Shown: one piece after another, positions 9,035 to 52,911 of the stretch | Numbering within the stretch: position 1 is the first letter of the stretch | How the letters are laid out: every line of letters begins with the position of its first letter | Assembly: GCA_965219085.1 (NCBI GenBank) | Contig: OZ244720.1 | Location: 2,784,001 to 2,848,000 of the forward strand | Length of the DNA stretch: 64,000 nucleotides | DNA from: Dehalococcoidia bacterium | GTDB taxonomy: Bacteria; Chloroflexota; Dehalococcoidia; UBA2979 | Reading direction: 5' to 3' | Made by a program: the position numbers and the translations under genes | The notes under the pieces: model-generated | The model's input: the letters and a program-made list of their open reading frames with translations, nothing else | The model's database searches: none | Told to the model about the DNA's origin: nothing

Positions 9035-10108
9035 TCAGTCGTCGAGGTAGTTGAGGCCGAGGGCTGAGCGCACGTCGACCATCGTGTCCTGGGCCACCGT
9101 GCGGGCGTATTCGGTGCCGCGTGCCAGCGCGGCGCGCACCTCGCGCGGGTTCGCCTCGTAGTGCGCGCGGCGCTCGCGGATCGGGTCGAGGAAGGTGTTG
9201 AGCGCCGCTGCCAGCTTCCGCTTCACCTCGACGTCGCCGACGGTGCCCGCGCGGTAGCGCTCCTTGAGGTCATCGACCTCCGCGGTGTCGGGGTTGAAGG
9301 CGTCGTGGTACATGAACACCGGGTTGCCCTCGACGTGGCCGGGGTCGGTGGCGCGCAGCCGCGTCGGGTCCGTGTACATGCGCATCACCTTGCGCTCGAC
9401 CGTCTCGGCGTCGTCCTTGAGGTCGATGGTGTTACCGAGCGACTTGCTCATCTTCGCGCTGCCGTCGATGCCGACGAGGCGCGGCACGCGGCCGACGAGG
9501 CCGCGCGGCTCGGGGAACACCTCGCCGAAGCGGCGATTGAAGCGCCGCGCCGTCTCGCGCGTCATCTCGATGTGCGGCATCTGGTCCTCGCCGACGGGCA
9601 CGAGGTGCGCGCGCGGCATGAGGATGTTGGCGACCTGCATGATCGGGTAGGTGAAGAACGCCACCGGCACCGCGCCGCGCTCACGCACGACCTGCCGCTT
9701 GCCCGAGCGCTCGGCCTCCTCGAACGACATGCCGCGCTCCTCGAGCTCGTCCATCTCGGCCTTGAGCGTCGGGTTGCGTTCGAGCCGCCCGAGGCCGATG
9801 AACCAGCTGAGCAGCGTGGTGAGCTCGGCGTGCTCGGGCACGAGGCTCTCGATCACGAAGTGGGAGCGCGCGGGGTCGAGCCCGACGGCGAGCCAGTCGG
9901 TCGCGACCTCGATCACGGCCTCACGGACGCGGTCGATGTCGTCGGCGTGGTCCGAGACCTGGTAGTCGGCGATGAGGAAGAAGCACTCGTACTCGTCCTG
10001 GAGCCGCAGCCAGTTCTCGAGCGCGCCGGCGTAGTGGCCGAGGTGGAGTGCGCCCGTGGGCCGTACCCCGGTCAGGATCCGCTGTCGCTCCTCGCTAGCC
10101 TCGCTCAT
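9035..10108 (-). CDS. trpS: Tryptophan--tRNA ligase
   Basis: TGVRPTGALHLGH (HIGH), VPVGEDQ, KMSKS. Confidence 0.96.
   Translation of the reverse strand: MSEASEERQRILTGVRPTGALHLGHYAGALENWLRLQDEYECFFLIADYQVSDHADDIDRVREAVIEVATDWLAVGLDPARSHFVIESLVPEHAELTTLLSWFIGLGRLERNPTLKAEMDELEERGMSFEEAERSGKRQVVRERGAVPVAFFTYPIMQVANILMPRAHLVPVGEDQMPHIEMTRETARRFNRRFGEVFPEPRGLVGRVPRLVGIDGSAKMSKSLGNTIDLKDDAETVERKVMRMYTDPTRLRATDPGHVEGNPVFMYHDAFNPDTAEVDDLKERYRAGTVGDVEVKRKLAAALNTFLDPIRERRAHYEANPREVRAALARGTEYARTVAQDTMVDVRSALGLNYLDD
10022..10084 (-). repeat. trpS 5' coding segment, copy 1 of a 63-bp direct repeat (partner 11289-11351)
   Basis: 62/63 identical to 11289-11351 by manual alignment. Confidence 0.92.
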
Positions 10109-10130
10109 CGCGCATCCTCCTCGCGCGTCG

Positions 10131-10170
10131 AGGGTATCGCGAGTGGGGGAGGGCGGCGAGGGAGGGGGTG
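10131..10170 (-). promoter_or_regulatory. Putative trpS promoter, copy A (-10 TACCCT)
   Basis: Minus strand ...ccactcgcgaTACCCT upstream of the GAGGAGG RBS; repeated at 10921-10960 and 11410-11442. Confidence 0.6.
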
Positions 10171-10279
10171 CGTGGCGCCACGCTGCCGATCGCTGCCGGG
10201 CGCCGGTGAGCCGGTGAACGTCGATCCCGCTCGCGGGCGCCGGTGATCGCGAGGCGCGGCCCTAGCTGCCGGGATCGGG

Positions 10280-10897
10280 CTAGAACATGCGGCCGTCGTC
10301 GTCGACGAGGCCCCGCACTGCGGCATCCGCCGCAGCCAGATCGAACGCGTCCACGTCCAGCGGGAGGTCGATGAACTCTTCGGCCCACTCCCTCAGTTCC
10401 GCGTCCTGCTCCGAGGAAGCGTTGGTCAACGCCTCGCGCAACTCGTGGTAGCCGTAGACGCCTCCGCAATCTTCCGGCGGACATGCGCCGCGTCCGGCGA
10501 TGCAGGCAGGCGCGTCCGGTCTCGATTGCTCGCCGGTTCGGACCGCCATGAGCTCGATACGGTGTTCCCAGGAGTCACCGAAATCGTACTCGTAGCGGAG
10601 CGTGTCGCGGGGCGCGCGCAGGACGTCCGCCACGACCACATCGGACTCGTCGGCATAGCCAAGCTCATCGAGGCTGGAGTCACCGTACGTGACTCCATCG
10701 GGCGCGGTGAACGCATGCAGGTGCGAGTTGGTCCAGCCCATGGCGGCCTGGATGACCAGATGGAGGTCGGCGAGCGTCGTCCGGTCCGGGATCACCACGC
10801 GCCGTTCGATATCCGGGTCGGCATCGACAAGGGCGATCAATATCTCGTACTGCCGATGTGCGCCCGGCGCAGGCGCACCCGAGTTGTTCGTCGCCAT
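10280..10897 (-). CDS. Plasmid pRiA4b ORF-3 family protein
   Basis: LHLVIQAAMGWTNSHLHAF, YEYDFGDSWEH, ACPPEDCGG; GGGAGG RBS before ATG 10897. Confidence 0.9.
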   Translation of the reverse strand: MATNNSGAPAPGAHRQYEILIALVDADPDIERRVVIPDRTTLADLHLVIQAAMGWTNSHLHAFTAPDGVTYGDSSLDELGYADESDVVVADVLRAPRDTLRYEYDFGDSWEHRIELMAVRTGEQSRPDAPACIAGRGACPPEDCGGVYGYHELREALTNASSEQDAELREWAEEFIDLPLDVDAFDLAAADAAVRGLVDDDGRMF

Positions 10898-10920
10898 GAT
10901 GCCCCTCCCGCTCTCACGCA

Positions 10921-10960
10921 AAGGTATCGCGAGTGGGTCAGGCGGGCGAGGGAGGGGGCG
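10921..10960 (-). repeat. trpS promoter copy B, in front of the pRiA4b ORF-3 gene
   Basis: 34/40 identical, ungapped, to 10131-10170; -10 reads TACCTT. Confidence 0.8.
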
Positions 10961-10961
10961 C

Positions 10962-11141
10962 CATGCGGGTCACCGCGGGACCGAGACGGCGTTGATCAGC
11001 GGCGACGATCGACGGCTGCGCCAGGCTATCGAGAGCTCGGAAGCGACGGCCGAGGTCATGTCTTCCCACGCGATGATCGCGGCGCTCACGCGGCCCATCG
11101 ACGAGCGCGAGTACATGTCGCCCTCCGAGTTCACCGAGTGA
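10962..11141 (+). pseudogene. 5'-truncated gene remnant
   Basis: Protein-like frame ...TETALISGDDRRLRQAIESSEATAEVMSSHAMIAALTRPIDEREYMSPSEFTE* begins at the edge of repeat copy B with no credible start or RBS. Confidence 0.4.
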
Positions 11142-11289
11142 TGCGCCCGGGCCGGCTCCGCTGCCAATCCGGGTGCGGGCCGAGGTAGACGACTCGCACG
11201 ATCCGCTCGCCCCACGTTCGGAGTTCCGCCCGGTCGCGGCGGCGGAGCCGGACGGTGTAGGGCGGCGGCGTCGCTTCTTCCGCTGGCAC
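11131..11289 (-). pseudogene. Possible internally deleted RelE/ParE-like toxin remnant
   Basis: VPAEEATPPPYTVRLRRRDRAELRTWGERIVRVVYLGPHPDW; N- and C-terminal motifs resemble RelE-fold toxins, middle missing. Confidence 0.3.
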
Positions 11290-11375
11290 GCGCCGGCGTA
11301 GTGGCCGAGGTGGAGGGCGCCCGTGGGCCGTACCCCGGTCAGGATCCGCTGCCTGTCGTCGCCGTTGCTCGTCAT
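11289..11375 (-). pseudogene. trpS: Orphan 5' fragment of trpS (29 codons)
   Basis: MTSNGDDRQRILTGVRPTGALHLGHYAGA then unrelated sequence; own RBS and promoter copy C upstream. Confidence 0.9.
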
Positions 11376-11409
11376 GGCGTCGCCTCGCCCTCGCCTTCAC
11401 GTTGCAGGC

Positions 11410-11442
11410 CGAGGGTATCGCGGGTGGGGGGAGGGGGGCGAG
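11410..11442 (-). repeat. trpS promoter copy C
   Basis: cgagggtatcgcgggtggggggaggggggcgag vs copy A cgagggtatcgcgagtgggggagggcggcgag (2 mismatches, 1 indel). Confidence 0.8.
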
Positions 11443-11455
11443 AGTGGAGCGGATT

Positions 11456-11490
11456 GGGTGGCGGCGCACCATTCGGGTGCGCCGCCACCC
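11456..11490. terminator. 15-bp perfect GC-rich hairpin, probable terminator
   Basis: gggtggcggcgcacc-attcg-ggtgcgccgccaccc, 8 nt after the stop of 11499-11819. Confidence 0.65.
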
Positions 11491-11498
11491 GCGGCCCA

Positions 11499-11819
11499 CT
11501 ACTGCCGATTGCAGGGCGGGTCGTACATGTCCCGAATCGCCTTCTCCTCGGCGAGGCGAGCCGCGCGCCCGGAGTAATTGATTCGGGCTGTGATGTGCGT
11601 ACCGCGGTTCCTCGTCACGCAGGGGAACCGCTCGTGCCCGCTGTGCACGCGATTCGCCAGGCTGTCAGTCTCGCCAGCGTAGAGCGCATAAAGGAGCCCA
11701 GTGCGAGGGTCTTCGCGCGCCCACACGTAATTTCCAGGCTGATCGGCCAGCGGGGTATCGATCGGGTAGACGTTGTACGTATACCCGGCCCATCTGACCG
11801 TTTGCGTTTGGGTTGTCAA
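11499..11819 (-). CDS. Small GIY-YIG-like protein
   Basis: PGNYVW...LYAGETDSLANRV..HE...R..EEKAI..YDPPCN pattern of minimal GIY-YIG nucleases; TTG start at 11819. Confidence 0.6.
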   Translation of the reverse strand: MTTQTQTVRWAGYTYNVYPIDTPLADQPGNYVWAREDPRTGLLYALYAGETDSLANRVHSGHERFPCVTRNRGTHITARINYSGRAARLAEEKAIRDMYDPPCNRQ

Positions 11820-11836
11820 GACAACTTTCTTTCTGC

Positions 11837-11850
11837 CGAACCATCGTTCG
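11837..11850. promoter_or_regulatory. Putative LexA (SOS) box
   Basis: CGAAC-catc-GTTCG, perfect match to the Gram-positive/Chloroflexota consensus, 17 nt upstream of the GIY-YIG start. Confidence 0.55.
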
Positions 11851-11935
11851 GCGGGTTCTTGAGATGCTGGGTTGGGGTGGCCGCGGAGCGCGGCTGGTGT
11901 AGTATCTCGCTGGTCGGAGTTCCTTTCCGATCTTC

Positions 11936-11974
11936 GGCATCGGGGATTGTGCTGATGGGCGCTTCCCCGATGCC
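11936..11974. terminator. Hairpin downstream of 12021-12482
   Basis: ggcatcgggga ... tccccgatgcc, 11-bp inverted repeat. Confidence 0.45.
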
Positions 11975-12020
11975 CTTGCGTTTTCGACACTCGCAGTGGC
12001 CGTGGCCCCGCGTCGTGCGC

Positions 12021-12482
12021 TTACTGATCGGCCCCCGTGCGACTGGCCCTGCTCTTCGGCAACGGATTGTCGAGCGAGAGTGCAAACACACCGTCATCGG
12101 CATCCTCCAGCCGGAAGGTGTGGTTCTCCTCCGGCAGTAGGTCGTAGTAGAGCAGCACGCTACGTGCAGACATAGAACTGCTCCCCGTGTCAGTGCCGTC
12201 GACCGTCCGCGACGGCTTCAGCGGGATAGCACCAGCTGCATCCCTCAGCGCTCTGCGCAATCCAATCTGCCGATCCCGCTCATTATATCCGATTCTGACG
12301 GCCGGTGGGTTGCCCAACATCTGGACTGCCACGTCATTCAGCGTCATCGAGCCAGACTTGGTCAGGGAGCACGTCGGGAACGAACGCGCTCCCCGCCCGC
12401 TCCCCTCGAACCAGTCAAAGCCGCTGGACGAGGGGGATTCCCGGTTTGGCACGGGCGTCGGATCCGCTTCTGTCGGCACCAT
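12021..12482 (-). CDS. Hypothetical protein (153 aa)
   Basis: GGGAG-rich RBS; TTGACA-N16-CAAGAT promoter at 12501-12528; protein-like composition. Confidence 0.7.
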   Translation of the reverse strand: MVPTEADPTPVPNRESPSSSGFDWFEGSGRGARSFPTCSLTKSGSMTLNDVAVQMLGNPPAVRIGYNERDRQIGLRRALRDAAGAIPLKPSRTVDGTDTGSSSMSARSVLLYYDLLPEENHTFRLEDADDGVFALSLDNPLPKSRASRTGADQ

Positions 12483-12615
12483 ACTCTCTCCCTCCCCATC
12501 ATCTTGCGTGATCCACCAGCGTTGTCAAGACACAATCTGCGTTCACTCCGCCACGCACAGTGATGATCCGTGCGTGTCTGTGTCCTGGTGCGCCGATGAT
12601 CGAGTGCAGTGCGGA

Positions 12616-13509
12616 CTACCCGAGGAGCGACAGCGCGTCTTCGAGGTCGGCCGCCTGGATGTCGGCGAACAGGTCGACCAGCGGCTTGAGGTGCCCGTCG
12701 TCCGCGGCTTCGAGGGCGTCGAGGTACGGGTCGCGGTGCTCCTCGTCGCGGATCACGAGCACGAGGTACTCGCTCCTCAGGAATACGGCCGCCGTCAGCG
12801 CTCGCGCGACGCGGCCGTTGCCGTCCTCGAACGGGTGGATCTGCGCGAAGCGATGGTGCAGCCACGCCGCCTCGACTTCGGCACACACGCCCTGCGCATT
12901 GTGCTGCGCATGCCAGGCGAGCAGCCGGTCCATCTCGTCTTGTACAAACTCGGGCGGGCAGTACTCGTGGACGCGTCCGTCGGGGCGGATCGGGTTGTTC
13001 GGCAGCCGCTTCCACGCGCCCTTGAGCAGCGGTGCGGCGAAGCGACGCCCCTGCGCGTCGATCGCGTCTCGCGTGTCCTGGTGCTCGGTCAGGCCGCGGT
13101 GAAGCTCGCGGATGTAGGAGCTCGTCAACGCTCGCCTGCCGCCGACGAGGTCCATCACCATCTCCAGCGAGGCGCGCTGATCCTCGATCAGGAGCCGGGC
13201 CTCGGTCGTGAGACGACCGTCCGCGCGGAACTGCTCCATCGCGTCGAGGCCCACCTCTGCGAGCGCTATCGTGACGACTCGGTCGACGCTGTATAGCCGC
13301 TCGATGATGCCCGTCTCGATCGCCCACACCGTCATCAGGCGCTCCTGCACCTGTCGCACGCGGTCCGGGGCGGCCAGCCGCTCGCGGGCCGCCGTCCAGC
13401 GTCCGTGCACGTCGTGCAGGTCGGGGCGGCAGAGCGAGCGCCAGCCCGCCGGGAGATCGGCGATGGGCTGCCAGTGGTGGGCGATGAGCGAGCTGCCGCC
13501 AGGCGGCAT
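12616..13509 (-). CDS. Fic family protein
   Basis: HPFEDGNGRVAR catalytic motif; N-terminal TGIIER inhibitory-helix-like motif; starts 5 nt after the argS stop. Confidence 0.92.
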   Translation of the reverse strand: MPPGGSSLIAHHWQPIADLPAGWRSLCRPDLHDVHGRWTAARERLAAPDRVRQVQERLMTVWAIETGIIERLYSVDRVVTIALAEVGLDAMEQFRADGRLTTEARLLIEDQRASLEMVMDLVGGRRALTSSYIRELHRGLTEHQDTRDAIDAQGRRFAAPLLKGAWKRLPNNPIRPDGRVHEYCPPEFVQDEMDRLLAWHAQHNAQGVCAEVEAAWLHHRFAQIHPFEDGNGRVARALTAAVFLRSEYLVLVIRDEEHRDPYLDALEAADDGHLKPLVDLFADIQAADLEDALSLLG

Positions 13510-13514
13510 CGCCG

Positions 13515-15176
13515 TTACATTCGGTCCGGCGCCGAGATGCCCATCAGCCCCAGTGTGCGGGCGAGGGTGATGCGCGTGGCTTCGAGGAGGAGGAGGCGCG
13601 CGCGGCTCAGCGGTTCGTCGTCGGTGAGCACGCGGCACTGCGTGTAGAAGATGTGGAACGACTGCGCCAGCTCCTGCGCGTAGTGCGGCAGGCGGTGCGG
13701 CGCCAGCTCCTCAACGGCCTCCTCGAGCGTCTCCGGGAGCAGCAGCAGCTTGCGGATCAGCGCCTGCTCCGCCTCGTGCGTGAGCAGCGAGGGCTCCGCG
13801 CCCTCCGCCGACAGCCCCTGCTCGACGGCGTTGCGCAGCACGCCCGCGATGCGTGCGTGCGCGTACTGCACGTAGTAGACGGGGTTCTCGTCGGTCTCCC
13901 GCTTGGCCAGCTCGAGGTCGAAGTCCATCGTCGAGCCCGGGGAGGAGAGCAGGAAGAAGAAGCGCGCCGCGTCGCGGCCGACCTCGTCGACGACCTCGCG
14001 CAGCGTCACGAGCTCGCCCGCGCGCTTGGAGAGCGGCACCACGGCGCCTGCGCGCTTCAGCGTCACGAGCTGGTAGAGCAGCACGTCGAGCGCGTTGCCG
14101 TCGCCGCCGGTGGCGGTGATGCCGGCCTTCACGCGCGAGACGTGGCCCTGGTGGTCGGCGCCCCACACGTCGATGACGCGGTCGAAGCCGCGCAGCATGA
14201 ACTTGTCGTAGTGGTAGGCGATGTCCGTGGCGAAGTACGTCGGGACGCCGTCGGAGCGGATCAGCACGTTGTCCTTCGACTCGCCGAGCTGCGAGGAGGC
14301 GAACCACACGGCGCCCTCGCGCTCGACGATGTGGCCCTGCTCGCGCAGCAGCGCCAGCACGGTGCCGTAGGGGCCGCCCTCGCGCTGCAGCGAGCGCTCC
14401 TCGAACCAGCGGTCGTAGCGCACGCCCATCGCCTCGAGGTCCTCGCGGATCTGCTCGACCATGAGGCGGATGCCCTCGTCGCCGAGCTGCGGGTCGGGGG
14501 GCTCGCCCTCGGGGCGCAGGAGGGCGTCGCCGTGCTGCTCGCGGATGCGGGCGGCGATGTCGCGCATGTACTCGCCGGGGTAGCCGTTCTCGGGGATCTC
14601 GGCCTCGCGGCCGAAGAGCTGCTCGTAGCGCGCGTAGAGCGTGCGGGCGAAGACGCCGACCTGCGAGCCGGCGTCGTTGATGTAGTACTCCTCCTGCACC
14701 TCGTGGCCCGTTGCGCGCAGTACGTTGGCGAGGGTCGAGCCGATGGCCGCGCCGCGCCCGTTGCCGACGTGGACGGGGCCCGTGGGGTTGGCGGAGACGT
14801 ACTCGACCTGGGTCTTGCTGCCGCGGCCGATGTCGAGCGGCGGCCACGCCTCGCCGGTGTCGGCGATGACGCGCGCCTGCCCGGCGGCCCACGCGGGGTC
14901 GAGGTAGAGGTTGAGGAAGCCGGGCGGAGCGACGCGGACCTCGGAGACAGCGGGGTGCGCGGGCATGCGCGCGCGCAGCGCCTCGGCCACATCGAGCGCC
15001 TTCATGCGCGCGAGGCCCTGGATGCGGAGCGGCAGGTTGGCGGCGAAGTCGCCGTGTTCGGGGCGCTGCGGGTGCTCGAGGCTGACATCGGGCGCGGCGA
15101 ACGGGGGCAGGTCGCCGGCGTCTTGCGCGGCGGCGAGCGCCTGTTGGACGAGTTCGCGCAGTTCGTCTCGGATCAC
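13515..15176 (-). CDS. argS: Arginine--tRNA ligase
   Basis: EYVSANPTGPVHVGNGR, WGADHQGH, NPVYYVQYAHAR, GISAPDRM. Confidence 0.96.
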   Translation of the reverse strand: MIRDELRELVQQALAAAQDAGDLPPFAAPDVSLEHPQRPEHGDFAANLPLRIQGLARMKALDVAEALRARMPAHPAVSEVRVAPPGFLNLYLDPAWAAGQARVIADTGEAWPPLDIGRGSKTQVEYVSANPTGPVHVGNGRGAAIGSTLANVLRATGHEVQEEYYINDAGSQVGVFARTLYARYEQLFGREAEIPENGYPGEYMRDIAARIREQHGDALLRPEGEPPDPQLGDEGIRLMVEQIREDLEAMGVRYDRWFEERSLQREGGPYGTVLALLREQGHIVEREGAVWFASSQLGESKDNVLIRSDGVPTYFATDIAYHYDKFMLRGFDRVIDVWGADHQGHVSRVKAGITATGGDGNALDVLLYQLVTLKRAGAVVPLSKRAGELVTLREVVDEVGRDAARFFFLLSSPGSTMDFDLELAKRETDENPVYYVQYAHARIAGVLRNAVEQGLSAEGAEPSLLTHEAEQALIRKLLLLPETLEEAVEELAPHRLPHYAQELAQSFHIFYTQCRVLTDDEPLSRARLLLLEATRITLARTLGLMGISAPDRM

Positions 15177-15278
15177 AGTGGGGACAGTCTATCGCGAGGG
15201 GCGGTGGGGGTCAGGATCGAGCGCCGCCCGAGGGCCGCGAGCGCGGTGGTATGGCGCAGGTGCTGGTACACTTGGCAC

Positions 15279-15458
15279 ATGGACAGGAACGAACGCCCTC
15301 ACCCGTCCGGGCTGCTCGCGTGGTTCCCCGCCTTCGTGAAGCGCGCGCTGGGCCAGAAGTCCGAGCCGACCGTCGAGTCCGAGCACCCGCCGTTGCGCGA
15401 CAAGCCCGGCCCGTCCGGCCTGCCCCCCGCTCCGCCACGAGTCGTGAGGCGGGGTTAG
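15279..15458 (+). CDS. Small hypothetical protein (59 aa), probably leaderless
   Basis: MDRNERPHPSGLLAWFPAFVKRALG...; TACACT -10 element 6 nt before the ATG. Confidence 0.45.
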   Translation: MDRNERPHPSGLLAWFPAFVKRALGQKSEPTVESEHPPLRDKPGPSGLPPAPPRVVRRG

Positions 15459-15477
15459 AGGCCCGTTGGTCGCTGCC

Positions 15478-15990: not shown

Positions 15991-16017
15991 CCGATTGTAG
16001 CCGACATCGGTACTACC

Positions 16018-18276: not shown

Positions 18277-18316
18277 CGCAGCGCCGTCCGTTCGAGCCGA
18301 GGGGAGCGCAGCTATC

Positions 18317-18330
18317 AGAACATGCGTACG
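18317..18330. promoter_or_regulatory. Putative LexA box upstream of nrdJ
   Basis: AGAAC-atgc-GTACG, 40 nt upstream of the nrdJ start. Confidence 0.45.
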
Positions 18331-43014: not shown

Positions 43015-43023
43015 GCGGCGCCG

Positions 43024-44499
43024 ATGCGATCACTCGACCTCGTCGGCACCCGCAAGTGGTTCTTCGTGTTGAGCGGGACGATCGTCGTCGTCTCGCTCGT
43101 GCTGCTCGCGATCCCGCCCACACTGCGCCCGGGCATCGAGTTCACCGCCGGAACCACTACGCTCGTGCGCTTCAACCGCAACGTCGACCAGGCGGACCTG
43201 CGCGCGGCCTACGCCGAACTCGGTCACCCCGAGGCGCGCATCCAGTCGACCGGCGATCGCGAGTACCTGATCCGCACCAGCGAGCTGCGCGTCCCCGACA
43301 GCGCGCTGATCGAGGTCAACCCGACGGCTACGCCGGACGACGCGCCGACATCGGAGCTCGGCACGGTGCTGCTCGGCGCGGAGGGCGCCGAGGGCGAGAT
43401 CGCGCTGCGCGTGTTCAACTTCGCGGTCTGCGACTTCGGCGGCGAGATCGAGCCTCCCTTCCCCGCCGGCAGAGACGCCGTCGTGTTCGAGGAGGTCCGG
43501 GAATCAGACTGCGAGACGGCCATCGAGGACGCGACCGGCGACTCCGGGGACGCCGACGCCACGGATACGCCCGACGACGCGGTCGAGGAAGAACCTGAGA
43601 CGACGGCCACGCCGGACGACGCCGCCGAGGAGCCCGACGCCACTGAGACGCCGGACGCCACGACCGAGGAGGAACCCACCGAGGACGAGGGCGAACTCCT
43701 CGCCTACCGCGTCCAGGTCGGCGGGGCAGACGGGACGACAGGCTTCGTCGCGCCGGCCGACACGCACGGATTCCTCGCGCCCGGCGAGGGGCGGGCGGAG
43801 CCCGAGACGCCCGCCAAAGACCTCGGCGAACGCGGCGAGATCGAGTCCGCGCTGGCGAAGCAGTTCGGGCGCTTCGAGGTGCTGGAGTTCGCCGCGGTCT
43901 CCGCGGTCGTGTCCACGCAGGCGGTACGCAACGCGACCATCGCCGTGGGGGTCGCGGCGGTGTTCATCATGGCCTACATCGTCTTCGCGTTCTCGAGCGT
44001 GCCGAGGCCGATGCGCTACGCCTCGGCCGCCATCGTCGCGCTGGCGCACGACACCATCATCGTGCTCGGCGCGTTCTCGCTCTTCGGGAAGGTGTTCGAG
44101 ATGGAGATCAACCTGATGTTCGTGACCGGCGTGCTCACCGTCATCGGTTTCTCCGTGCATGACACCATCGTGATCTTCGACCGTGTGCGCGAGAACGTGC
44201 GCATCGCGCCGCAGGCGCGGTTCTCCGACAGCGTGAACGCCGCGCTTGTGCAGACGCTCGGACGCTCGCTGAACACGTCGATCACGCTGGTGCTCACGAT
44301 CCTCGCGCTGCTGTGGCTGGGCGGATCGACGATCCAGCCGTTCCTCATCGTGCTGCTGGTGGGCGTGATCGCGGGGGCCTACTCGAGCATCGCGATCGCG
44401 GCGCAGGTGCTCGTGGCGTGGGACGAGGGCGACTTCTCGAGGCTGCTCGGCCGCTTCCGTCGTGGCGGCGAGTCCGAGGAGGAAGCGGCGGCGACGTAG
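43024..44499 (+). CDS. secF: Protein translocase subunit SecF with large extracytoplasmic insertion
   Basis: GIEFTAG, HD, GFSVHDTIVIFDRVREN, RSLNTS, GAYSSI. Confidence 0.93.
   Translation: MRSLDLVGTRKWFFVLSGTIVVVSLVLLAIPPTLRPGIEFTAGTTTLVRFNRNVDQADLRAAYAELGHPEARIQSTGDREYLIRTSELRVPDSALIEVNPTATPDDAPTSELGTVLLGAEGAEGEIALRVFNFAVCDFGGEIEPPFPAGRDAVVFEEVRESDCETAIEDATGDSGDADATDTPDDAVEEEPETTATPDDAAEEPDATETPDATTEEEPTEDEGELLAYRVQVGGADGTTGFVAPADTHGFLAPGEGRAEPETPAKDLGERGEIESALAKQFGRFEVLEFAAVSAVVSTQAVRNATIAVGVAAVFIMAYIVFAFSSVPRPMRYASAAIVALAHDTIIVLGAFSLFGKVFEMEINLMFVTGVLTVIGFSVHDTIVIFDRVRENVRIAPQARFSDSVNAALVQTLGRSLNTSITLVLTILALLWLGGSTIQPFLIVLLVGVIAGAYSSIAIAAQVLVAWDEGDFSRLLGRFRRGGESEEEAAAT
43555..43690 (+). 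repeat. Degenerate acidic repeats inside the secF insertion
   Basis: DATDTPDDAVEEEP / ETTATPDDAAEEP / DATETPDATTEEEP. Confidence 0.7.
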
Positions 44500-44528
44500 G
44501 CGCGGCTAGACGGGGTGCGCCGCTATCC

Positions 44529-44732
44529 TCAGAGGTTCAGCGCCGCCAGGATGATAGTCAGGACCGTGACATTGGCGCCTACGATCAGGCCGCCGAGGTG
44601 GAGCCGCAGCCGCGCCAGTTCGTAGCGCAGCTCATCCCTTGAGACCGAGCGTGCCTCGATCGCGTCGGCCAGGGCTCGCGCCTGGTCTGACGTAAAGCCG
44701 GCGGATTCGAGGTTATGCACGGTCTCCAGCAT
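44529..44732 (-). CDS. DUF1640-like small protein
   Basis: MLETVHNLESAGFTSDQARALADAI..., C-terminal TM; TACAAT -10 and GGGAAGG RBS. Confidence 0.7.
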   Translation of the reverse strand: MLETVHNLESAGFTSDQARALADAIEARSVSRDELRYELARLRLHLGGLIVGANVTVLTIILAALNL

Positions 44733-44882
44733 GTGGCCGCCCTTCCCGGCTCCCATTGTACGCATCAGCACAAGTTTTCGTATGTGGTGCATAAAGGGGC
44801 CTGGTGCCGGTCAGCGCCAGCGCCTTGCGCGGCGCACTAAGACGGGGATGGTAGTATCGACAGCCAGAAGAGTGAAGGGTTC

Positions 44883-45452
44883 ATGGCGTACCTTCGCCTA
44901 CTCGCGGCGGCAGCAGTGCTAGCGCTGGTGATCGCCGCGCTGGCCGTCATCTTCGCCACGCCGGACGGTCCCGTATCCGAAGAAGCTGTGACTGAGGGCA
45001 ATGGCCCCGACAGCGGCCCCAAGGTGAAACCCACGGTCACGGTCACGCACGCAGCAACGCCTACGCCGACTAGGCGCACATGGCCATCACCTCCCGAGCC
45101 GCTGGGGTTCACCGTCGAAGGCACCGGCCCCGCCGACGTGTTCTACCACGTCAAGGCTGCCGGACTGCTCCTCTGCCGTGCCTCGGTGGCGGGGAACGTC
45201 AGGCCCGACGGCACCGCTGGCTACTTCAGGGTCAAGATCAAGGGCGCAGACCCCCTCTACGACCTCTTTTCCAGCGAGATCGCCGGAGAAGTCGAAGATA
45301 CAGGCTACGTTACGTTCGCTGCGGGCGACCGCGACACATGGCCTCCCGATGCGCTGTGGCCCCGCGACGAAGACGGTAACCAGCACTTCTCCATCGATGT
45401 CCTCGCGGAGCGGGGTGCCCGCTGGATCGTGTCGTGTGCCGAGGAGGACTAG
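44883..45452 (+). CDS. Hypothetical exported protein
   Basis: N-terminal hydrophobic segment, Pro/Thr linker, beta-rich C-terminal domain with two Cys. Confidence 0.7.
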   Translation: MAYLRLLAAAAVLALVIAALAVIFATPDGPVSEEAVTEGNGPDSGPKVKPTVTVTHAATPTPTRRTWPSPPEPLGFTVEGTGPADVFYHVKAAGLLLCRASVAGNVRPDGTAGYFRVKIKGADPLYDLFSSEIAGEVEDTGYVTFAAGDRDTWPPDALWPRDEDGNQHFSIDVLAERGARWIVSCAEED

Positions 45453-45455
45453 GGC

Positions 45456-45806
45456 ATGCGCTACGTGACCTTCCTGGTGGGTGGGATCCTGCTCGGCGTC
45501 GTCGTGTTCGGCGTCGCCTCGTCCGAGTCGTGGCCGGAAACTCAGTCCCCTGAGCACATGCACGTCTGCACAGGCCTCGAGGTCCTCTGGCCCGGCGACT
45601 GGGCCGGCACGGTCCGGGTGATTCACACCCACGGAAACGGGCACCACCCCTCCCACCTGGCTATGGGGAACCCCGAGACCGATCGAGACCCCCGTACCCT
45701 GCACCGCCGCGTTCGATGCCTCGAACACGCGTGGCCAGGATGGGAGCACAGCATCTACGAACCGCACCCCTACCACCCGGACTTCCAGCCCAGCGACGTG
45801 TGGTAG
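45456..45806 (+). CDS. Hypothetical His/Pro/Trp-rich exported protein
   Basis: Signal-like N-terminus; many His; GAGGA RBS. Confidence 0.6.
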   Translation: MRYVTFLVGGILLGVVVFGVASSESWPETQSPEHMHVCTGLEVLWPGDWAGTVRVIHTHGNGHHPSHLAMGNPETDRDPRTLHRRVRCLEHAWPGWEHSIYEPHPYHPDFQPSDVW

Positions 45807-45818
45807 GGAGGCACTGAT

Positions 45819-46343
45819 ATGCATGGAGTCATCGCCGCCGCCGCGGCGCTCATCGCGCTGCTGCTCGGATCCAGCTCCGCGCAGGCGCAGCCGGCGCCGG
45901 ACCCGGCCACCTACTCTGGCTACGGCCTGATCCCAGGCGATGTCGTCACCGCGATCTACTACGACGAAGATTGTGAAACTGCAATCGTCGACGAGACTGG
46001 CAGCTGGTACCTCGAGGTCACCGACGACAGCCCGTGCCGCCCGAGCCCCGGCGCCGCAGCGCGGATCGACTTTCTGGTCAACTTGGACCACGCCAATGAG
46101 TCCTTCGTATACGCCTACGGCCACCGCGTGGATGGCATCGTGTTCTCCGGCCTTCGCCTTCGACCTAGGATCGAGGGGCGGGGGGCCGACGGGGTCGTGA
46201 CGCCGGCCGACAAGAGCGATGCGAGCATGGCCGACGACCTGCTCGAGCAGTGGCCCCTGATTATGCTGACCCTCGCGGCGCTCGCGCTCATCGTTATTGC
46301 AGCGGCTGAGATCACTATGGTGCTGCGGGCTAGACGCGACTAA
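45819..46343 (+). CDS. Hypothetical protein, signal peptide plus C-terminal TM anchor
   Basis: AQA cleavage-like site; C-terminal hydrophobic helix and RARRD tail; GGGAGG RBS. Confidence 0.7.
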   Translation: MHGVIAAAAALIALLLGSSSAQAQPAPDPATYSGYGLIPGDVVTAIYYDEDCETAIVDETGSWYLEVTDDSPCRPSPGAAARIDFLVNLDHANESFVYAYGHRVDGIVFSGLRLRPRIEGRGADGVVTPADKSDASMADDLLEQWPLIMLTLAALALIVIAAAEITMVLRARRD

Positions 46344-46418
46344 CGTCGGTTCGCTCTCAGGCACGCCGCCCCGACCACGGTGTGGTACTCGCGAAAGCGA
46401 TCGTCATCTTGACGCGCC

Positions 46419-46571
46419 TCAGCAGCTCGGCGCATTGTTACAGCGGCTCACTGAGCGATTCGACGCTGCGCTCGACCGCCTCGAACCGGCGTCGACAGCG
46501 ATGATGATATAGGCCGCGACCTCGATGGCCAGTTCGTGCAGCGCGTGGCGGACTTCCCTCTTGAACCTCAC
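46419..46571 (-). CDS. Possible small ORF (50 aa)
   Basis: GTG start, MRFKREVRHALHELAIEVAAYIIIAVD...; below ORF-track cutoff. Confidence 0.25.
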   Translation of the reverse strand: MRFKREVRHALHELAIEVAAYIIIAVDAGSRRSSAASNRSVSRCNNAPSC

Positions 46572-46604
46572 CGGGTCGTCGACGCCCGGGGGCGGCCTGC
46601 ACGC

Positions 46605-46705
46605 TCATGGCGCCACCGCGGCGGTCGCCAGGGCGGCGTCCTGAGCGCGCTCGATCTCGGCGCGCAGCTCGTCCATCGTCGGGACGCCCATCCGCCAGAA
46701 CTGCC
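46605..46705 (-). pseudogene. 5'-truncated gene remnant at islet junction
   Basis: ...QFWRMGVPTMDELRAEIERAQDAALATAAVAP*; frame runs directly into the secF duplicate. Confidence 0.4.
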
Positions 46706-46785
46706 GGGACGAGGGCGACTTCGGGCGGCTGCTCAGGCGCTTCCGGCGTGGGGGTGAGTCGGGCGAGCAGCCTGCGGCGACGTAG
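46706..46785 (+). pseudogene. secF: Orphan duplicate of the last 80 bp of secF
   Basis: 65/80 identical, ungapped, to 44420-44499; DEGDFGRLLRRFRRGGESGEQPAAT* vs DEGDFSRLLGRFRRGGESEEEAAAT*. Confidence 0.92.
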
Positions 46786-46797
46786 CCGCGGGCGCGG

Positions 46798-47313
46798 TTA
46801 ACGCCAGCGCACGAGCAGCACACCGCCGAGCACCACCAACACGCCCGCGATGCGCAGCAGCGTGACGCGCTGCGCCTCGTTCCCGAACGCGCCGATGTGG
46901 TCCATGACGAGCGCGCCGCCGAGGGTCCCGGCCGTCACCGCGCTGAACAGCAGCGCCACCCCCAGCCTCGGCGCGAGCGCCGACCCGCCGATGATGAACG
47001 CCGCGCCGAACAGCCCAACGCCGGCCATGTACGCGCTCGGTCCGTGGAACCCGAGCACGAGCACGCCGACCGACAGCAGGCCGATCACGGCGAACACCCA
47101 CCAGCGATCGAACGGGACGGGCAGGTCGACCGCGTCGTCGCGCGCGGTGCGAATGGCGAGCACCAGGGCGATGCCCGCCACCGTGCCGAAGATCGAGAGC
47201 CAGCCCGCCTCGACGGGTCCGCGGTCGCGCCCGATCGCGCCGAGCATCGAGACCTGCACCGAGGCGCCGACCCCGAGGGAGAGCGCGACGGCGAGTTGGA
47301 GCAGTTGGGTCAC
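46798..47313 (-). CDS. DMT family (YdcZ/DUF606-like) membrane protein
   Basis: Five TM; PRLGVA, MDHIGAFG, RIAGV; overlaps the selB stop. Confidence 0.85.
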   Translation of the reverse strand: MTQLLQLAVALSLGVGASVQVSMLGAIGRDRGPVEAGWLSIFGTVAGIALVLAIRTARDDAVDLPVPFDRWWVFAVIGLLSVGVLVLGFHGPSAYMAGVGLFGAAFIIGGSALAPRLGVALLFSAVTAGTLGGALVMDHIGAFGNEAQRVTLLRIAGVLVVLGGVLLVRWR

Positions 47314-49160: not shown

Positions 49161-49298
49161 GCCGCGAGTCTAGCGGCGATGCCGCCGAGGGGCAGTTGCC
49201 GCCCGCGGGACAGTGCGCGAGGCTGCGCGAGGACGCCGGGTACAGCACCGGGGGCGAAGGGAGCACACGATGCGCATCGCAGACGCCGGGGCAGTATC

Positions 49299-50345
49299 GT
49301 GACCGTCGCGTTCAGCACCGATCAGATCTACTTCTCGCACCAGCCGCCGGGCGGCACGCCGCATCCCGAGCGCTCGGACCGCCTCGCCGCGATCCTGCAG
49401 CAGCTCGATACCACGGGCCTGCTCGACCGCATGGAGCACCTGCCCGAGCGCGACGCGACCGACGAGGAGCTGCTCGCCGTGCACACGCGCGACCTGCTCG
49501 TGACCGTCGACGCGCATGCCGCCGCCGGCGGCGGGTGGGCCGATGCCGACACGTTCATCGGGCCGTCGTCACCGGCAGCGGCGCGCCGCGTGGCAGGCGC
49601 GGCGCTTGCGGCGACCGACGCCGTCCTCGGCGGCGCGGCGACGAGCGCGTTCGTCGCGGCGCGTCCGCCCGGTCACCACGCGACGCGCGACCGCGCGATG
49701 GGGTTCTGCCTCTTCAACCAGGTCGCGGTCGCCGTGCAGGCAGCCCTCGACCGCAGCGTGGAGCGCGTAGCCGTCGTCGACTGGGACCTGCACCACGGCA
49801 ACGGCACGCAGGCGATCTTCGACGACGAGCCGCGCGTGCTCTACGTCAGCACGCACGCCTACCCCTTCTACCCCGGCACCGGCGCAGTCGAGGACCGCGG
49901 AGTCGGCGCGGCGGCGGGGACGATGGTCAACATTCCGCTCCCGGGCGGGGCCGGGGACGCCGCGTTCCGAGCCGCCTACGGGCAGGTCGCCGTGCCGGCG
50001 CTCGAGGCGTTCAGGCCGGAGCTCGTGTTCGTGTCGTGCGGGTGGGACTCGCACGCGCGTGACCAGCTCGGCCCGCTCGCCGTCTCGACGGCGGGCTACA
50101 CCGCCGTCGCGAGGATGATCGTCGACGCCGCGAACCGGCTCTGCGACGGGCGTCTCGTCGCCGTCCTCGAGGGCGGCTACGACGAGCACGCGCTGGCGCA
50201 CTGCTCGCAGGCGCTATGCGAGCTGCTGCTCGGTGACGAGCCGTCGCCCGACCCGCTACAGGGCACCGGGAAGCCGGAGCTCGTCGGCAACATCGACATG
50301 GTGATCGCCGCGACCCGCGCGGCTGCTGGCCTCGACGCATCGTGA
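49299..50345 (+). CDS. Histone deacetylase family (Zn-dependent) protein
   Basis: HPE, RPPGHHA, GFC, DWDLHHGNGT, LEGGY. Confidence 0.93.
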   Translation: MTVAFSTDQIYFSHQPPGGTPHPERSDRLAAILQQLDTTGLLDRMEHLPERDATDEELLAVHTRDLLVTVDAHAAAGGGWADADTFIGPSSPAAARRVAGAALAATDAVLGGAATSAFVAARPPGHHATRDRAMGFCLFNQVAVAVQAALDRSVERVAVVDWDLHHGNGTQAIFDDEPRVLYVSTHAYPFYPGTGAVEDRGVGAAAGTMVNIPLPGGAGDAAFRAAYGQVAVPALEAFRPELVFVSCGWDSHARDQLGPLAVSTAGYTAVARMIVDAANRLCDGRLVAVLEGGYDEHALAHCSQALCELLLGDEPSPDPLQGTGKPELVGNIDMVIAATRAAAGLDAS

Positions 50346-50824
50346 GGCGCGCGCTGCTCGTGCTGGTGCTCGGCCTCGTCGCGGTGCTCGCCGCCTGCGG
50401 CGGCGAAGGCTCAGGCGAACACGATGGCGACTCGGGGGAGCACGGCCGCTCGGAGGAGGGCGGCTCCGACGAGGGCGAGGAGTCGGGCGTCCAGTACACC
50501 CGGACCGAGGTCTACGACAGCGTGCGGGCGGGCGCGCGGCTGATCATCTCCTACGACGCACCCTCCAACACGTTCATCGGCACGGTCGAGAACGTGACGT
50601 CGGAGACGCTGGCCCGCGTCCGCGTGGAAGTGCACCTCTCCAACGGCGTCGAGCTCGGCCCGACGACCCCCACCGACCTCGCCCGGGGCGGGGTGCTCGA
50701 GGTGACCCTGGAGGCCACCACGCAGCCGTTCGAGACGTGGAGCGCGCACCCCGAAGTCGGCAGCGAGGAGGCGGAGCACGGCGACGAGGAGCACGAGGGC
50801 GGCTCTGAGGAATCGGGCGACTGA
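50342..50824 (+). CDS. Lipoprotein with His/Glu/Gly-rich tails
   Basis: Lipobox LAAC; GTVEN...VRVEVHL beta domain (FxLYD-like); EHDGDSGEH and EHGDEEHE tails. Confidence 0.75.
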   Translation: MRRALLVLVLGLVAVLAACGGEGSGEHDGDSGEHGRSEEGGSDEGEESGVQYTRTEVYDSVRAGARLIISYDAPSNTFIGTVENVTSETLARVRVEVHLSNGVELGPTTPTDLARGGVLEVTLEATTQPFETWSAHPEVGSEEAEHGDEEHEGGSEESGD

Positions 50825-50856
50825 CCGGCTGAGGCCCGCCGCTGCCCGGGCGGGCG

Positions 50857-51141
50857 CTACTCGATGGTCCGCGACTCCGTGAGCGTGCCCTGGCGGCCGC
50901 AGGCCGGGCAGTCCTCGGGCAGCTCGGGTCGGGGGACGTCGCCGCCACGGAGCTGCGACAGGCCGAGCCAGATGTCGTCGCGGAGCTGGAACGACGAGGC
51001 GATGCGGCCGCGGGGGCCGCGCGTGGCCGCGCGCAACTCCTCCTCGACGCGCCGTTGCGCCTCGGCGGCGCTCATCGGCCTGCTCGAACGCACGAGGACC
51101 TCGCGGCGGCAGCTTGAGCAGCGGTAGACATCGATCGGCAC
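50857..51141 (-). CDS. Small zinc-ribbon protein
   Basis: YRCSSC ... CPACG; follows hemW. Confidence 0.7.
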   Translation of the reverse strand: MPIDVYRCSSCRREVLVRSSRPMSAAEAQRRVEEELRAATRGPRGRIASSFQLRDDIWLGLSQLRGGDVPRPELPEDCPACGRQGTLTESRTIE

Positions 51142-51169
51142 GGACAGCCTCGGGAGCGCGGCGCCGGCG

Positions 51170-52378
51170 TCAGGGCGCGGCGGCCGGTTGCGCGTCCGGC
51201 AGCGGGTCGGGCAGCAGGTCCACGAACACCTCGTTGGCGAGCAGCAGGCCGCGCGTCGTGAGCCGCAGCCGCCCGTCGCGGTCCTCGAGCAGGCCCGTGC
51301 GGAAGTGGCGCTCGATCGCGCCGCCGAACGCCGCCTCCGGCGGCTCGCCGAAGCGCGCCGCGTAGTCGAGGCGAGAGACGCCTTCGAGGAGCCGCAGCCC
51401 GAGGATCAGCGCGTCGGCGCGCAGGGTCGCCTCGTTGGGCGTCTCGCCGCCGGCGATCTGCTGGAGCGTGCCGCCGCCGGTGGCCGTGCGCTCGGCGTGG
51501 GAGGCGTTGACCAACTCGACGTAGCGCTGGGGCGAGTCGACATTCGCGAGGCGCTGCCCGGCGAAGAACGAGTGCGCGCCCGCGCCGACGCCGATGTACG
51601 GCTCGGCGCGCCAGTAGACGAGGTTGTGGCGGCAGGGGTGGCCGGGCCGCGCCCAGTTCGAGATCTCGTACTGCTCGTACCCGGCGAGGGCGAGGCGGTC
51701 GCGGGTCCACTCGTACTGGTCGGCAACGACGTCGGGGTCCGGCTCGGGGAGCGTCCCCTTCTGGACCTGGTAGTAGAGCAGCGTGCCGGGTTCGACGGTG
51801 AGCGCGTAGCAGGACAGGTGCTCCGGCGCCAGCTCGATCGCGCGCTCCAGCGTGTGCTGCCAGCACTCAAGGGGCTGGTCGATGAGCCCGAAGATGAGGT
51901 CCATGTTCACGTTGTCGAAGCCCGCCGCGCGGGCCGATTGCACACCCTCGACGGCGCGGTCGGCACTGTGCTGACGGTCGAGGAGCTCCAGTTCGTCGTC
52001 GTTGAGCGACTGCACGCCGATCGAGAGTCGGTTGATGCCGAGCGCGCGCAAGCCTTCGAGGTGCTCGCGCGTGAGCTCGGTCGGGTTCGCCTCGATGGTC
52101 CACTCGGCGTCGGGCGCGACGTCGTACTGCGCGCGCACGGCGCGCACGATCGTCTCCATGTCGTCGAGCGAAGTGAGGCTCGGGGTGCCGCCGCCGAGGA
52201 ACACCGTCTCGACGCGGTGGGTGCGCGCGGCGGGCGCCCACAGCTCGAGCTCGCGCACGAGCGCGGGCGTGTACTCGGGCACGAGGTGGTCGAGGCCCTC
52301 GTAAGAGTTGAAGTCGCAGTAGCCGCACTTGGCGGTGCAGAACGGGATGTGCAGGTAGAGCGAAAGCGCCTGCGTCAC
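51170..52378 (-). CDS. hemW: Radical SAM heme chaperone HemW
   Basis: YLHIPFCTAKCGYCDFNS, GGGTPS, YEISN, HNLVYW. Confidence 0.93.
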   Translation of the reverse strand: MTQALSLYLHIPFCTAKCGYCDFNSYEGLDHLVPEYTPALVRELELWAPAARTHRVETVFLGGGTPSLTSLDDMETIVRAVRAQYDVAPDAEWTIEANPTELTREHLEGLRALGINRLSIGVQSLNDDELELLDRQHSADRAVEGVQSARAAGFDNVNMDLIFGLIDQPLECWQHTLERAIELAPEHLSCYALTVEPGTLLYYQVQKGTLPEPDPDVVADQYEWTRDRLALAGYEQYEISNWARPGHPCRHNLVYWRAEPYIGVGAGAHSFFAGQRLANVDSPQRYVELVNASHAERTATGGGTLQQIAGGETPNEATLRADALILGLRLLEGVSRLDYAARFGEPPEAAFGGAIERHFRTGLLEDRDGRLRLTTRGLLLANEVFVDLLPDPLPDAQPAAAP

Positions 52379-52421
52379 AACGGACCTCGATGCTCGTGCC
52401 GTGCTCGTGGCGGCGCGGCCA

Positions 52422-52452
52422 GCGTACAGGCGTGGCGGGGTGTGGGGAACGC
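52422..52452. repeat. 31-bp perfect direct repeat, copy 1 (putative hemW promoter)
   Basis: gcgtacaggcgtggcggggtgtggggaacgc, identical at 52881-52911. Confidence 0.93.
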
Positions 52453-52473
52453 ACGGGAGGCGTCGCGCCGCGT

Positions 52474-52857
52474 CTAGTTGTGCGCCAGTTCGTCTTGGTC
52501 GGGCAGTCTGCGAGGCTCGGATGCGGTGCCGGGGTCGTATCCCTTGTGGATGTACGTGGCGAGCCGGTGATAACCGTCGTCCGGTGCATCGTCGACGGGA
52601 ACAGCTGCGATGATCTCCTCCGCGGTGTTGACCGGGAGGTCGGCGAGGTGCGCCATGAGCTTGCTCACGATGTCCTGACGCTTGCCGCGCGCGCTGACCT
52701 CGACGCCCACGTCTCTCGCGAATTGGCTGAGGTTGCTCGTAGTAGGCAGGATTTCGCTCTTGCGGAGCCGGGATTCGAAACCCGAGAGCAACTCATACAG
52801 CGAGGGCTCAGTCTCCTTCAGACGGTCACAGGCACTGGGCGTCCGCTCCCACTCCCG
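52474..52857 (-). pseudogene. Probably 5'-truncated hypothetical gene between the repeats
   Basis: Frame open from TAG at 52858-52860: ...DRLKETEPSLYELLSGFESRLRKSEILPT...; only a TTG at 52791 as start; lower GC. Confidence 0.55.
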
Positions 52858-52880
52858 CTAACTATGCTACTACGTCGATT

Positions 52881-52911
52881 GCGTACAGGCGTGGCGGGGT
52901 GTGGGGAACGC
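52881..52911. repeat. 31-bp perfect direct repeat, copy 2
   Basis: Identical to 52422-52452. Confidence 0.93.

Follow-up and report, generated by a model that had tools for sequence, protein, structure and literature searches.

Accessory islets bounded by second copies of core-gene ends point to recurrent additive capture from related chromosomes in a genus of Dehalococcoidia

In this study, we analysed a 64-kb stretch of DNA (hereafter the window; G000:C1:2784001-2848000) from a Dehalococcoidia bacterium whose genome (G000; 3.31 Mb, 69.8% GC) is a single contig. Three core loci of the window, trpS, secF and the hemW-aspS intergenic region, share one architecture: intact core genes, a short islet of accessory DNA and, on the far side of the islet, a second copy of the adjacent core-gene end, promoter or intergenic sequence. 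Additive capture of accessory genes from related chromosomes is well supported by these loci and their relatives as a real and recurrent process, and as a minority route of gene gain. The comparison set comprised G000 and 18 further genomes of the same genus (19 in total). Trees of argS and aspS, which cover 18 of the 19 genomes (G006 was left out), yield two well-supported groups, clade A (G000, G003, G007, G008, G014, G016 and G018) and clade B (11 genomes). Clade-A genomes are 86-87% identical to each other over aligned stretches, interspecies distance was put at 86-88% identity, and between-clade identity is 90% for trpS, 88% for argS and 78% for aspS.

The three duplicate pairs and the additional promoter copy of the original prediction were all present, at coordinates that were exact or a few bases off. 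By self-alignment, the trpS 5' end with its promoter (10022-10177) recurs at 11289-11463 (177 columns, 78% identity, E = 2e-28), the inner 62 bp of the pair differing by one mismatch, and a further promoter copy pairs 10133-10171 with 10923-10961 (87% identity). The secF 3' end (44420-44505) recurs at 46706-46791 (86 bp, 81% identity, E = 2e-16), and the hemW-aspS intergenic pair (52422-52452 and 52881-52911) is 31 bp long and 100% identical (E = 2e-8). One low-complexity coding tandem repeat aside, these four pairs are the best four local repeats of the window. Each in ascending order, the islets measure 0.43, 1.1 and 2.2 kb, and the repeats 31, 86 and about 155-175 bp. Gene names in the window were upheld by Pfam and NCBIfam searches. 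As predicted, the profile searches found no integrase or transposase family in the open reading frames (ORFs) of the three islets; a PADLOC defence search gave no match among the same ORFs, and the nearest recombinase gene found in G000 lies 150-200 kb from them.

Chimeric assembly, or an ancestral local duplication common to all relatives and since decayed, is hardly credible as the source of this architecture. A short-read contig of run X3, which may be the source sample, spans 43000-48225 including both secF copies with 0 differences, and X3 contigs end exactly at the 31-bp hemW-aspS repeat (depths 8.8, 7.5 and 8.3). The distal secF junction is also spanned, over 46665-46932 and with 13 differences, by a contig of an independent study (X1), and in a third study a cargo piece is 99% identical (3 differences in 373 bp), whereas most core pieces differ by 3-6%. 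This support covers the secF and hemW-aspS loci, for which a chimeric join, named beforehand as a refuting case, is ruled out; at trpS, relatives carry the same architecture. The stranded argS copy of G007 and the stranded secF copy of G016 do look decayed, and 2 of the 14 informative G000 pairs described below are shared with a relative, but empty alleles are common and an overall signature of decay is lacking.

Comparing resident with stranded ends assigned them to different lineages, as had been anticipated. In G000, the resident trpS N-terminus is of clade-B type and continues into a clade-B promoter and a pRiA4b ORF3-like gene, while the stranded copy has a clade-A N-terminus and is matched by the clade-mates of G000 with 18 votes to 0. 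The inner part of the stranded arm is of G000 type and not of clade-B type. G005 shows the opposite exchange of trpS alleles between the clades. The RelE/ParE-like gene that begins at the junction is about 165 bp shorter than in G014, where it is intact (ParE_toxin, E = 0.0026, below the cut-off); the small remnant beside it is presumably antitoxin-like. The promoter relic is what remains of an older stranded trpS start, which is longer in G012 and G004, where it reaches +57/+59. Painting of donor tracts along trpS was uninformative because the gene is 85-97% identical across both clades.

The argS-trpS region is a hotspot across the genus: in 12 of the 19 genomes, trpS, argS or the hydrolase gene downstream has left a stranded end there. 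Breakpoints vary within a gene: trpS 5' copies end at +22, +57/59, +86 and +101-106, trpS 3' copies begin at +983, +1031, +1038 and +1070, and argS copies begin at -38 and -60. The last 13-20 argS codons are stranded in G004, G007, G012, G013 and G015. Some junctions join the ends of two core genes. Four clade-B genomes have trpS codon ~37 joined to the final 13 argS codons at a GC-rich match of 8 of 9 bp, so that two versions of the intergenic region stand in tandem; in G014, the end of the downstream hydrolase gene is joined to the trpS end, which is the same type of joint downstream of trpS. The pRiA4b gene of G009 is joined in frame to trpS codon 7 at a 7-bp match, and a third junction in relatives shows microhomology of 2-5 bp. 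G004 carries two copies of one cargo that are 82% identical. Junctions with two different core-gene ends suggest that the donors were chromosomal fragments and not elements with an att site.

Further features of this region were noted. The last 84 bp of trpS (9035-9118) are 95% identical to G018 and 77-90% identical to all others, which suggests a separate exchange of 3' alleles. Downstream of trpS, a NucS-like/PDC-S11 gene (8060-9016) is present in many relatives; in G014, G016, G017 and G018 it is bordered by stranded trpS 3' ends and is therefore probably further islet cargo. The ParE/RelE-like gene and its small neighbour (10992-11289; locus L042, 7267-7885) converge and overlap at their ends, which is uncommon for a toxin-antitoxin pair, and both are below the family cut-off. 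In G015 (L045, 3094-5444), two ORFs that look in sequence like a putative transposase of the IS21 insertion sequence family and its helper ATPase lie inside the hotspot.

At the two other loci, the sister genomes show empty or differently filled alleles, as they do elsewhere in the genome, which is what the original prediction led us to look for. The secF islet is missing in G018, G015, G012, G004, G005 and G013, and G016 and G014 hold other cargo at this site with stranded ends of their own (102 bp of secF and 114 bp of the YdcZ-family gene, respectively). The three small ORFs of the G000 secF islet probably encode secreted or membrane-anchored products. A donor search in the genus recovered the first secF cargo ORF alone (4 of 18 relatives), and Atlas searches with two of the cargo proteins returned hypothetical clusters only, one match set being mostly Chloroflexota. 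Between hemW and aspS, 11 of 17 relatives have a single 31-mer and no cargo, five carry a different gene there and G018 a complete two-gene module. The G000 cargo corresponds to residues 65-187 of a 187-residue protein that is whole in G018 (55% identity), and the donor search in the genus found one 70% homologue, again in G018. Cargo genes had been expected to be cut or fused at the distal junction; this is so at trpS and hemW, while for the distal 33-codon remnant at secF no homologue that could prove it was found. As for the G018 module itself (L178, 448-1838), it consists of a ParA-like ATPase and the 187-residue partner, which has no family, and is possibly an undescribed defence or addiction pair. 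The secF gene contains an acidic low-complexity insertion (43536-43676), which brings its product to 491 residues. Coordinates of all features are collected in Table 1.

Table 1. Core genes, duplicated ends and islet cargo at the three loci (positions in the window).
Feature	Coordinates	Strand	Remark
trpS	9035..10108	-	intact; N-terminus of clade-B type though G000 is clade A
Resident trpS promoter and first ~29 codons	10022..10177	-	
pRiA4b ORF3-like cargo gene	10280..10897	-	at the same site in 7 clade-B genomes
trpS promoter relic before pRiA4b gene	10923..10961	-	what is left of an older stranded trpS 5' end
49-codon remnant of a small gene (~100 aa)	10992..11141	+	no family at cut-off
RelE/ParE-like gene remnant	11131..11289	-	52 of 107 codons; begins at junction
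Stranded trpS promoter and 5' end	11289..11463	-	ATG at 11375; clade-A N-terminus; joined to cargo
Further accessory genes (two unknown ORFs, Fic gene)	11499..13509	-	outside the duplicate pair
argS	13515..15176	-	other flanking core gene
secF	43024..44499	+	intact
Resident secF 3' end	44420..44505	+	
secF islet cargo span	44506..46705	.	
First secF cargo ORF	44529-44756	-	common to 4 of 18 relatives
Three small secF cargo ORFs	44883-45452, 45456-45806, 45819-46343	+	no Pfam family
Possible gene remnant	46605-46705	-	distal 33 codons
Stranded secF 3' end	46706..46791	+	frame and stop kept; 5 synonymous, 5 non-synonymous codon changes
YdcZ-family gene	46798..47313	-	convergent flank; the stranded end in G014 is its 3' end
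hemW	51170..52378	-	intact
31-bp intergenic copy, hemW side	52422..52452	+	
Cut cargo gene (partner of ParA-like ATPase)	52474..52845	-	C-terminal 123 of 187 residues
31-bp intergenic copy, aspS side	52881..52911	+	
aspS	52960..54786	+	intact

The pattern recurs throughout G000, as the predicted genome-wide self-alignment bears out. For this census, genes were called with our own codon model and not taken from curated annotation. Local self-alignment gave 1715 direct versus 121 inverted matches within 15 kb, mostly from repetitive giant genes and paralogues, and filtering for sparse pairs left 88 direct versus 21 inverted pairs. Among the direct pairs, 39 of 88 are no more than 30 bp away from a gene terminus, compared with 23.0 +- 3.8 expected from 200 random placements. 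Strict rules retained 23 coding-end pairs (39-240 bp, 77-99% identical), whose anchor genes include pheS, glnA, ispF, ribD, pepP, prpD and a type I restriction subunit. A first automatic empty-site test found 11 empty sites among 63 testable direct pairs and 2 among the 17 inverted ones; 36 of the direct pairs were shared, being mostly paralogues or internal repeats. Thus, the class is smaller than the unfiltered repeat list suggests. In a hand-picked set of 37 G000 pairs, comparison with G014 and G018 was informative for 14 (six empty, six with different content, two with the same islet); 18 lacked an orthologous flank and five were unclear. Outside the window, four further G000 pairs have an empty allele. 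The genome-wide empty-site comparison rested on 2.0 Mb of G014 and G018 and covered G000 beyond 1.2 Mb (G014 was compared up to 1.2 Mb). No junction motif was found in the 23 G000 junctions, their information content being within the null. With variable repeat lengths and variable breakpoints, this agrees with the prediction that no single conserved att core is used.

To describe the cargo, we scanned a chosen subset of ORFs in 25 duplicate-flanked islets outside the window, which were hand-picked before their cargo was known. Eight contain toxin-antitoxin pairs or toxins (four PIN, DUF433/DUF5615, HicAB, Gp49 with a helix-turn-helix (HTH) protein, and MNT-HEPN), and four more contain Fic, NYN or PDC-M11 genes. 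Toxin-antitoxin cargo is found in 8 of these 25 islets versus 0 of 20 unflanked G000 indels, which come from different parts of the genome (Fisher p = 0.006, or 0.03 if a lone HTH gene is counted). An IS5-type transposase gene occurs in 1 of the 25 islets, so that the predicted lack of transposases, true of the window, does not extend to every islet of the genome. Locus L194 (1107-3043; G000 2096947-2099042) holds a candidate defence pair, PDC-M11A/B (GNAT plus ASCH), that lies between exact 28-bp repeats and is empty in G014 and G018.

Do the two arms of a pair represent alleles of different lineages or an original and its decaying duplicate? The stricter set used for this question holds 44 coding-end pairs (23 from G000 and 21 from relatives), some of which share one event. 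Their mismatches number 91/60/162 at codon positions 1/2/3, and the changed codons are 135 synonymous versus 130 non-synonymous, with 0 stops. The third-position share of 52% exceeds both 33% (p = 2e-11) and a rough expectation of 44% for a duplication in which one copy then decays (p = 0.006); at ortholog termini it is 59%. The arms show no drift towards AT (107 vs 101), and GC at third codon positions is kept (93% vs 91%). Coding bases present only in the stranded arm were found in another genome's gene in 53 of 85 cases, against a null of 16.6 +- 3.6 (loci with at least 5 orthologues). Median arm identity is about 90%. Judged from these substitution patterns, the copies differ as orthologous alleles of different lineages do, and not as decayed duplicates. 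Among the stranded pieces are also donor-derived ends of the gene on the opposite flank and older copies that have decayed.

The explanation that fits best, and that we consider probable, is anchored homologous recombination with a linear chromosomal donor, completed by an illegitimate join that deletes nothing, with the junctions later spread by ordinary recombination. A linear chromosomal fragment of a relative would enter the cell, probably by natural transformation, carrying the core gene together with different neighbouring accessory genes. One fragment end would recombine homologously inside the core gene, and the opposite end, which often falls within a cargo gene or in the end of the second flanking core gene, would be joined at short microhomology to a recipient position within the region that the donor also supplies. 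The recipient would lose nothing, and because nothing is deleted, the cargo would come to lie between two allelic copies of 30-240 bp. Candidate activities for making the join are RecA-associated annealing and Ku-dependent end joining. A finished junction could then spread between species by ordinary double crossover and could stack into arrays. The over-representation of toxin-antitoxin cargo may follow because such cargo penalises loss by recombination between the arms. Among the genes that this route would use, comEC and Ku are present in 19 of 19 genomes, and G000 has dprA and two MutS-family genes; the competence genes asked for by the original prediction are therefore present. That prediction had proposed capture from related strains by homology-facilitated illegitimate recombination (HFIR). 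Capture from relatives is borne out, and HFIR itself is what we infer.

Several observations weigh against this explanation or restrict its reach. First, the share of gene gain is small: a flanking duplicate accompanies 7 of 105 clean indels of 0.25-8 kb among G000, G014 and G018 (3/24, 0/7, 1/22, 1/11, 1/21 and 1/20 in subsets that are pairwise and not independent; inverted control 0), and 110 further differences are replacements. The idea of a genome-wide route thus holds for recurrence and not for share. In three other species, 10-18% of variable segments are described as repeat-flanked, mostly by repeats of <30 bp (Touzain 2010), and given these values the rate found here may not be exceptional. 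Second, the toxin-antitoxin and defence genes predicted as cargo are found, but a broad defence enrichment is not significant (12 of 25 vs 5 of 20, p = 0.14). Third, the polarity of the arms is mixed. The predicted stranding of the old end holds at trpS and fails as a general rule: at secF the clade-mates are undecided between the copies (46 vs 41), and at most loci other than trpS and secF they match the resident copy. Fourth, the decayed-looking copies of G007 and G016 count here too, and the 44 pairs include some probable paralogue pieces besides shared events. Fifth, bases private to G000 among the sampled genomes stand in both copies at trpS (inner 62 bp) and at hemW, which calls for a same-species donor, gene conversion or true target copying; about 35 bp of unrelated AT-rich sequence also stand at the hemW junction. 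Sixth, the predicted junction microhomology was seen at two junctions in relatives (7-9 bp) and is unreadable in the window islets because no exact donor for any of them was found among the genus genomes. Finally, recipient DNA at the join is duplicated and not lost, unlike the usual outcome of HFIR, which in experiments mostly deletes recipient DNA.

Two other explanations have to be weighed against anchored recombination, and we regard each as unlikely. A circle of arm plus cargo, formed by illegitimate recombination or by pop-out of an islet, might integrate by a single RecA crossover within the arm. Such a circle yields the same architecture including cut cargo and two-sided junctions, and it would suit the identical trpS-argS junction that four species carry with different arm alleles, as well as the 29 of 44 pairs that hold at least 20 perfect bp. 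However, perfect tracts inside the arms are not in excess (ratio 1.07 vs 1.08 at ortholog termini, p = 0.54) and 15 of 44 pairs have fewer than 20 perfect bp, which suits a crossover outside the arm. The G000-type inner part of the stranded trpS arm also speaks against a circle, as do arms of 27-60 bp, which are poor RecA substrates. No circle or empty-allele joint was seen among the 15 of 134 read joints listed, in contigs that drop rare variants.

True target copying, by break repair, template switching or unequal interchromatid integration, with the resident end later replaced by another allele, is the second of these doubtful alternatives. It finds support in the 31-bp arms, which are 100% identical and share a G000-specific base, in the G000-specific bases shared by the inner 62 bp at trpS, and in several pairs that are 96-100% identical. 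Two-sided junctions resemble the joints of tandem duplications, G004 has its two cargo copies (82%), and Ku is found in every genome. Against this, the median arm identity is near interspecies distance, the substitution spectrum is ortholog-like without stops, and a second event would be required at most loci. An inner-identical, outer-diverged gradient was hinted at by the window loci and is not general (236/2008 vs 238/2037).

A recombinase acting in trans on relaxed sites (XerC/D-like or a serine integrase), or elements that have lost their integrase, is very improbable and largely refuted by the variable breakpoints: G000 does encode eight resolvase-family and two tyrosine recombinases, and 3 of 31 islets are no more than 6 kb away from such a gene, but the junctions share no motif and include the end of the second flanking core gene, a single gene shows several different breakpoints, arms are up to 240 bp long and the window islets are far from any recombinase found. 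Integrase-driven genomic islands restore the split target gene and thereby duplicate its end. They resemble the islets described here in that the gene stays intact and its end is duplicated, but here no integrase lies in the islets or, at the window loci, beside them, the crossover is not fixed and an att core is not conserved.

The architecture itself is already published as insertion with long target duplication (ILTD), and the mechanism is already proposed for type VI secretion system (T6SS) arrays of Vibrio. ILTD of restriction-modification (R-M) genes is said to go back to work by Nobusato et al. from 2000, cited in the later study by Furuta. That study describes inserts of <20 kb that lack mobility genes and stand between direct repeats of >30 bp and of variable length, with a single copy at the empty site; start or stop codons often lie within the repeats, genes are fused, and hosts are mostly naturally competent (Furuta 2010; PMC2853133). 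Restriction-induced breaks were suggested as the cause, and a demonstrated mechanism of ILTD was not found in the papers reached. The window islets agree in insert size, repeat length with a single copy at the empty site, and absence of mobility genes. R-M genes, which define the scope of that study, were absent from the scanned ORFs of the window islets and of the 25 other islets. As for the expectation that both repeats are copies of the target, the 31-bp pair fits it, and the trpS and secF arms are two alleles. Unlike in those cases, the cargo here is toxin-antitoxin, Fic, NYN and unknown genes instead of R-M pairs, tens of loci lie in one genome, arms are often alleles of different lineages instead of target copies, and some junctions bear the end of the other flanking core gene.

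In Vibrio, an HFIR displacement model was put forward for T6SS effector-immunity arrays (Kirchberger 2017; PMC5361080). This model, like the explanation favoured here, has a homologous anchor and an illegitimate join that add a module and shift the old end downstream; the arrays then move by ordinary homologous recombination, and the additive event is rarer than replacement. It differs in being confined to toxin loci and in that the old effector is usually removed, while here housekeeping genes (trpS, argS, secF, pheS, glnA, ispF, ribD and pepP) are used at 5' and 3' ends with no loss. A comparable displacement of Rhs C-termini was reportedly described by Jackson in 2009, a work cited in the Vibrio study. 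The chromosomal hotspots of Oliveira 2017 likewise hold alternative cargo between the same core genes, with flanks homogenised across lineages, as trpS and argS are here when set against aspS, and a link to transformability. Alternative cargo between often-recombining core genes is found here as well, as in hotspots of double recombination free of mobile genetic elements, but in those hotspots cargo is replaced without a duplicate, which is not the case for these islets, and 'illegitimate' is absent from the main text of that paper; the islets described here are an additive minority. Transformation merodiploids arise by interchromatid integration, and pairing at two places gives tandem duplications without a transposase (Johnston 2013; PMC3784515). 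They need pre-existing repeats and duplicate 100-900 kb, whereas arms of 27-240 bp around 0.4-2.5 kb are seen here. New in this study are the two-allele evidence, the two-sided junctions and the toxin-antitoxin enrichment. No paper on housekeeping-anchored, toxin-antitoxin-rich arrays with two-allele arms was found in a search that left subscription literature largely aside, and the supplements of Furuta 2010 may hold cases with diverged arms.

Elsewhere in the window, a 0.5-kb gene at 50336-50856 is absent in clade-A relatives, present in several clade-B genomes and free of flanking duplicates, and represents a replacement-type transfer or a loss. An acidic low-complexity coding repeat lies at 60108-60305, within an acidic C-terminal tail at about 60100-60360. 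The stretch 62395-64000 has a low GC fraction (0.58) and an HTH_Tnp_1 transposase ORF (63416-63694); it is the start of a region containing insertion sequences after a core operon. In a family-level relative (G019; L050, 2344-3024, 4870-5115 and 6205-6595), many dispersed intergenic repeats of ~100 bp resemble repetitive extragenic palindromes or miniature inverted-repeat transposable elements.

These islets bear on the question of how accessory and defence genes enter chromosomal sites that are free of mobile elements. The route described here has a modest share (about one clean indel in 15) and follows a pattern already known, but the genus supplies tens of dated examples that leave both arms, and the parents of several junctions, legible. 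Compared across lineages, these examples point to the chromosomes of related species as donors rather than to target copying. It is tempting to go further, although only tentatively, since this bolder view is more doubtful than the capture itself: ILTD might be a general, enzyme-free mode of additive gene gain, in which a RecA-anchored transforming fragment from another species would be sealed by the end joining of the host (all 19 genomes have Ku). The chimeric junction would then be a reusable adaptor that adds cargo across species by ordinary recombination, hands it the promoter or start codon of a core gene, as with the pRiA4b gene, and persists chiefly where the cargo is an addiction module. 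Such an adaptor would explain the spread of chromosomal toxin-antitoxin systems without mobile elements. If additive capture is confirmed, it would offer a route for toxin-antitoxin spread and for promoter capture, and stranded gene ends could be searched for as a signature of additive transfer and would record the order of acquisition at each site.

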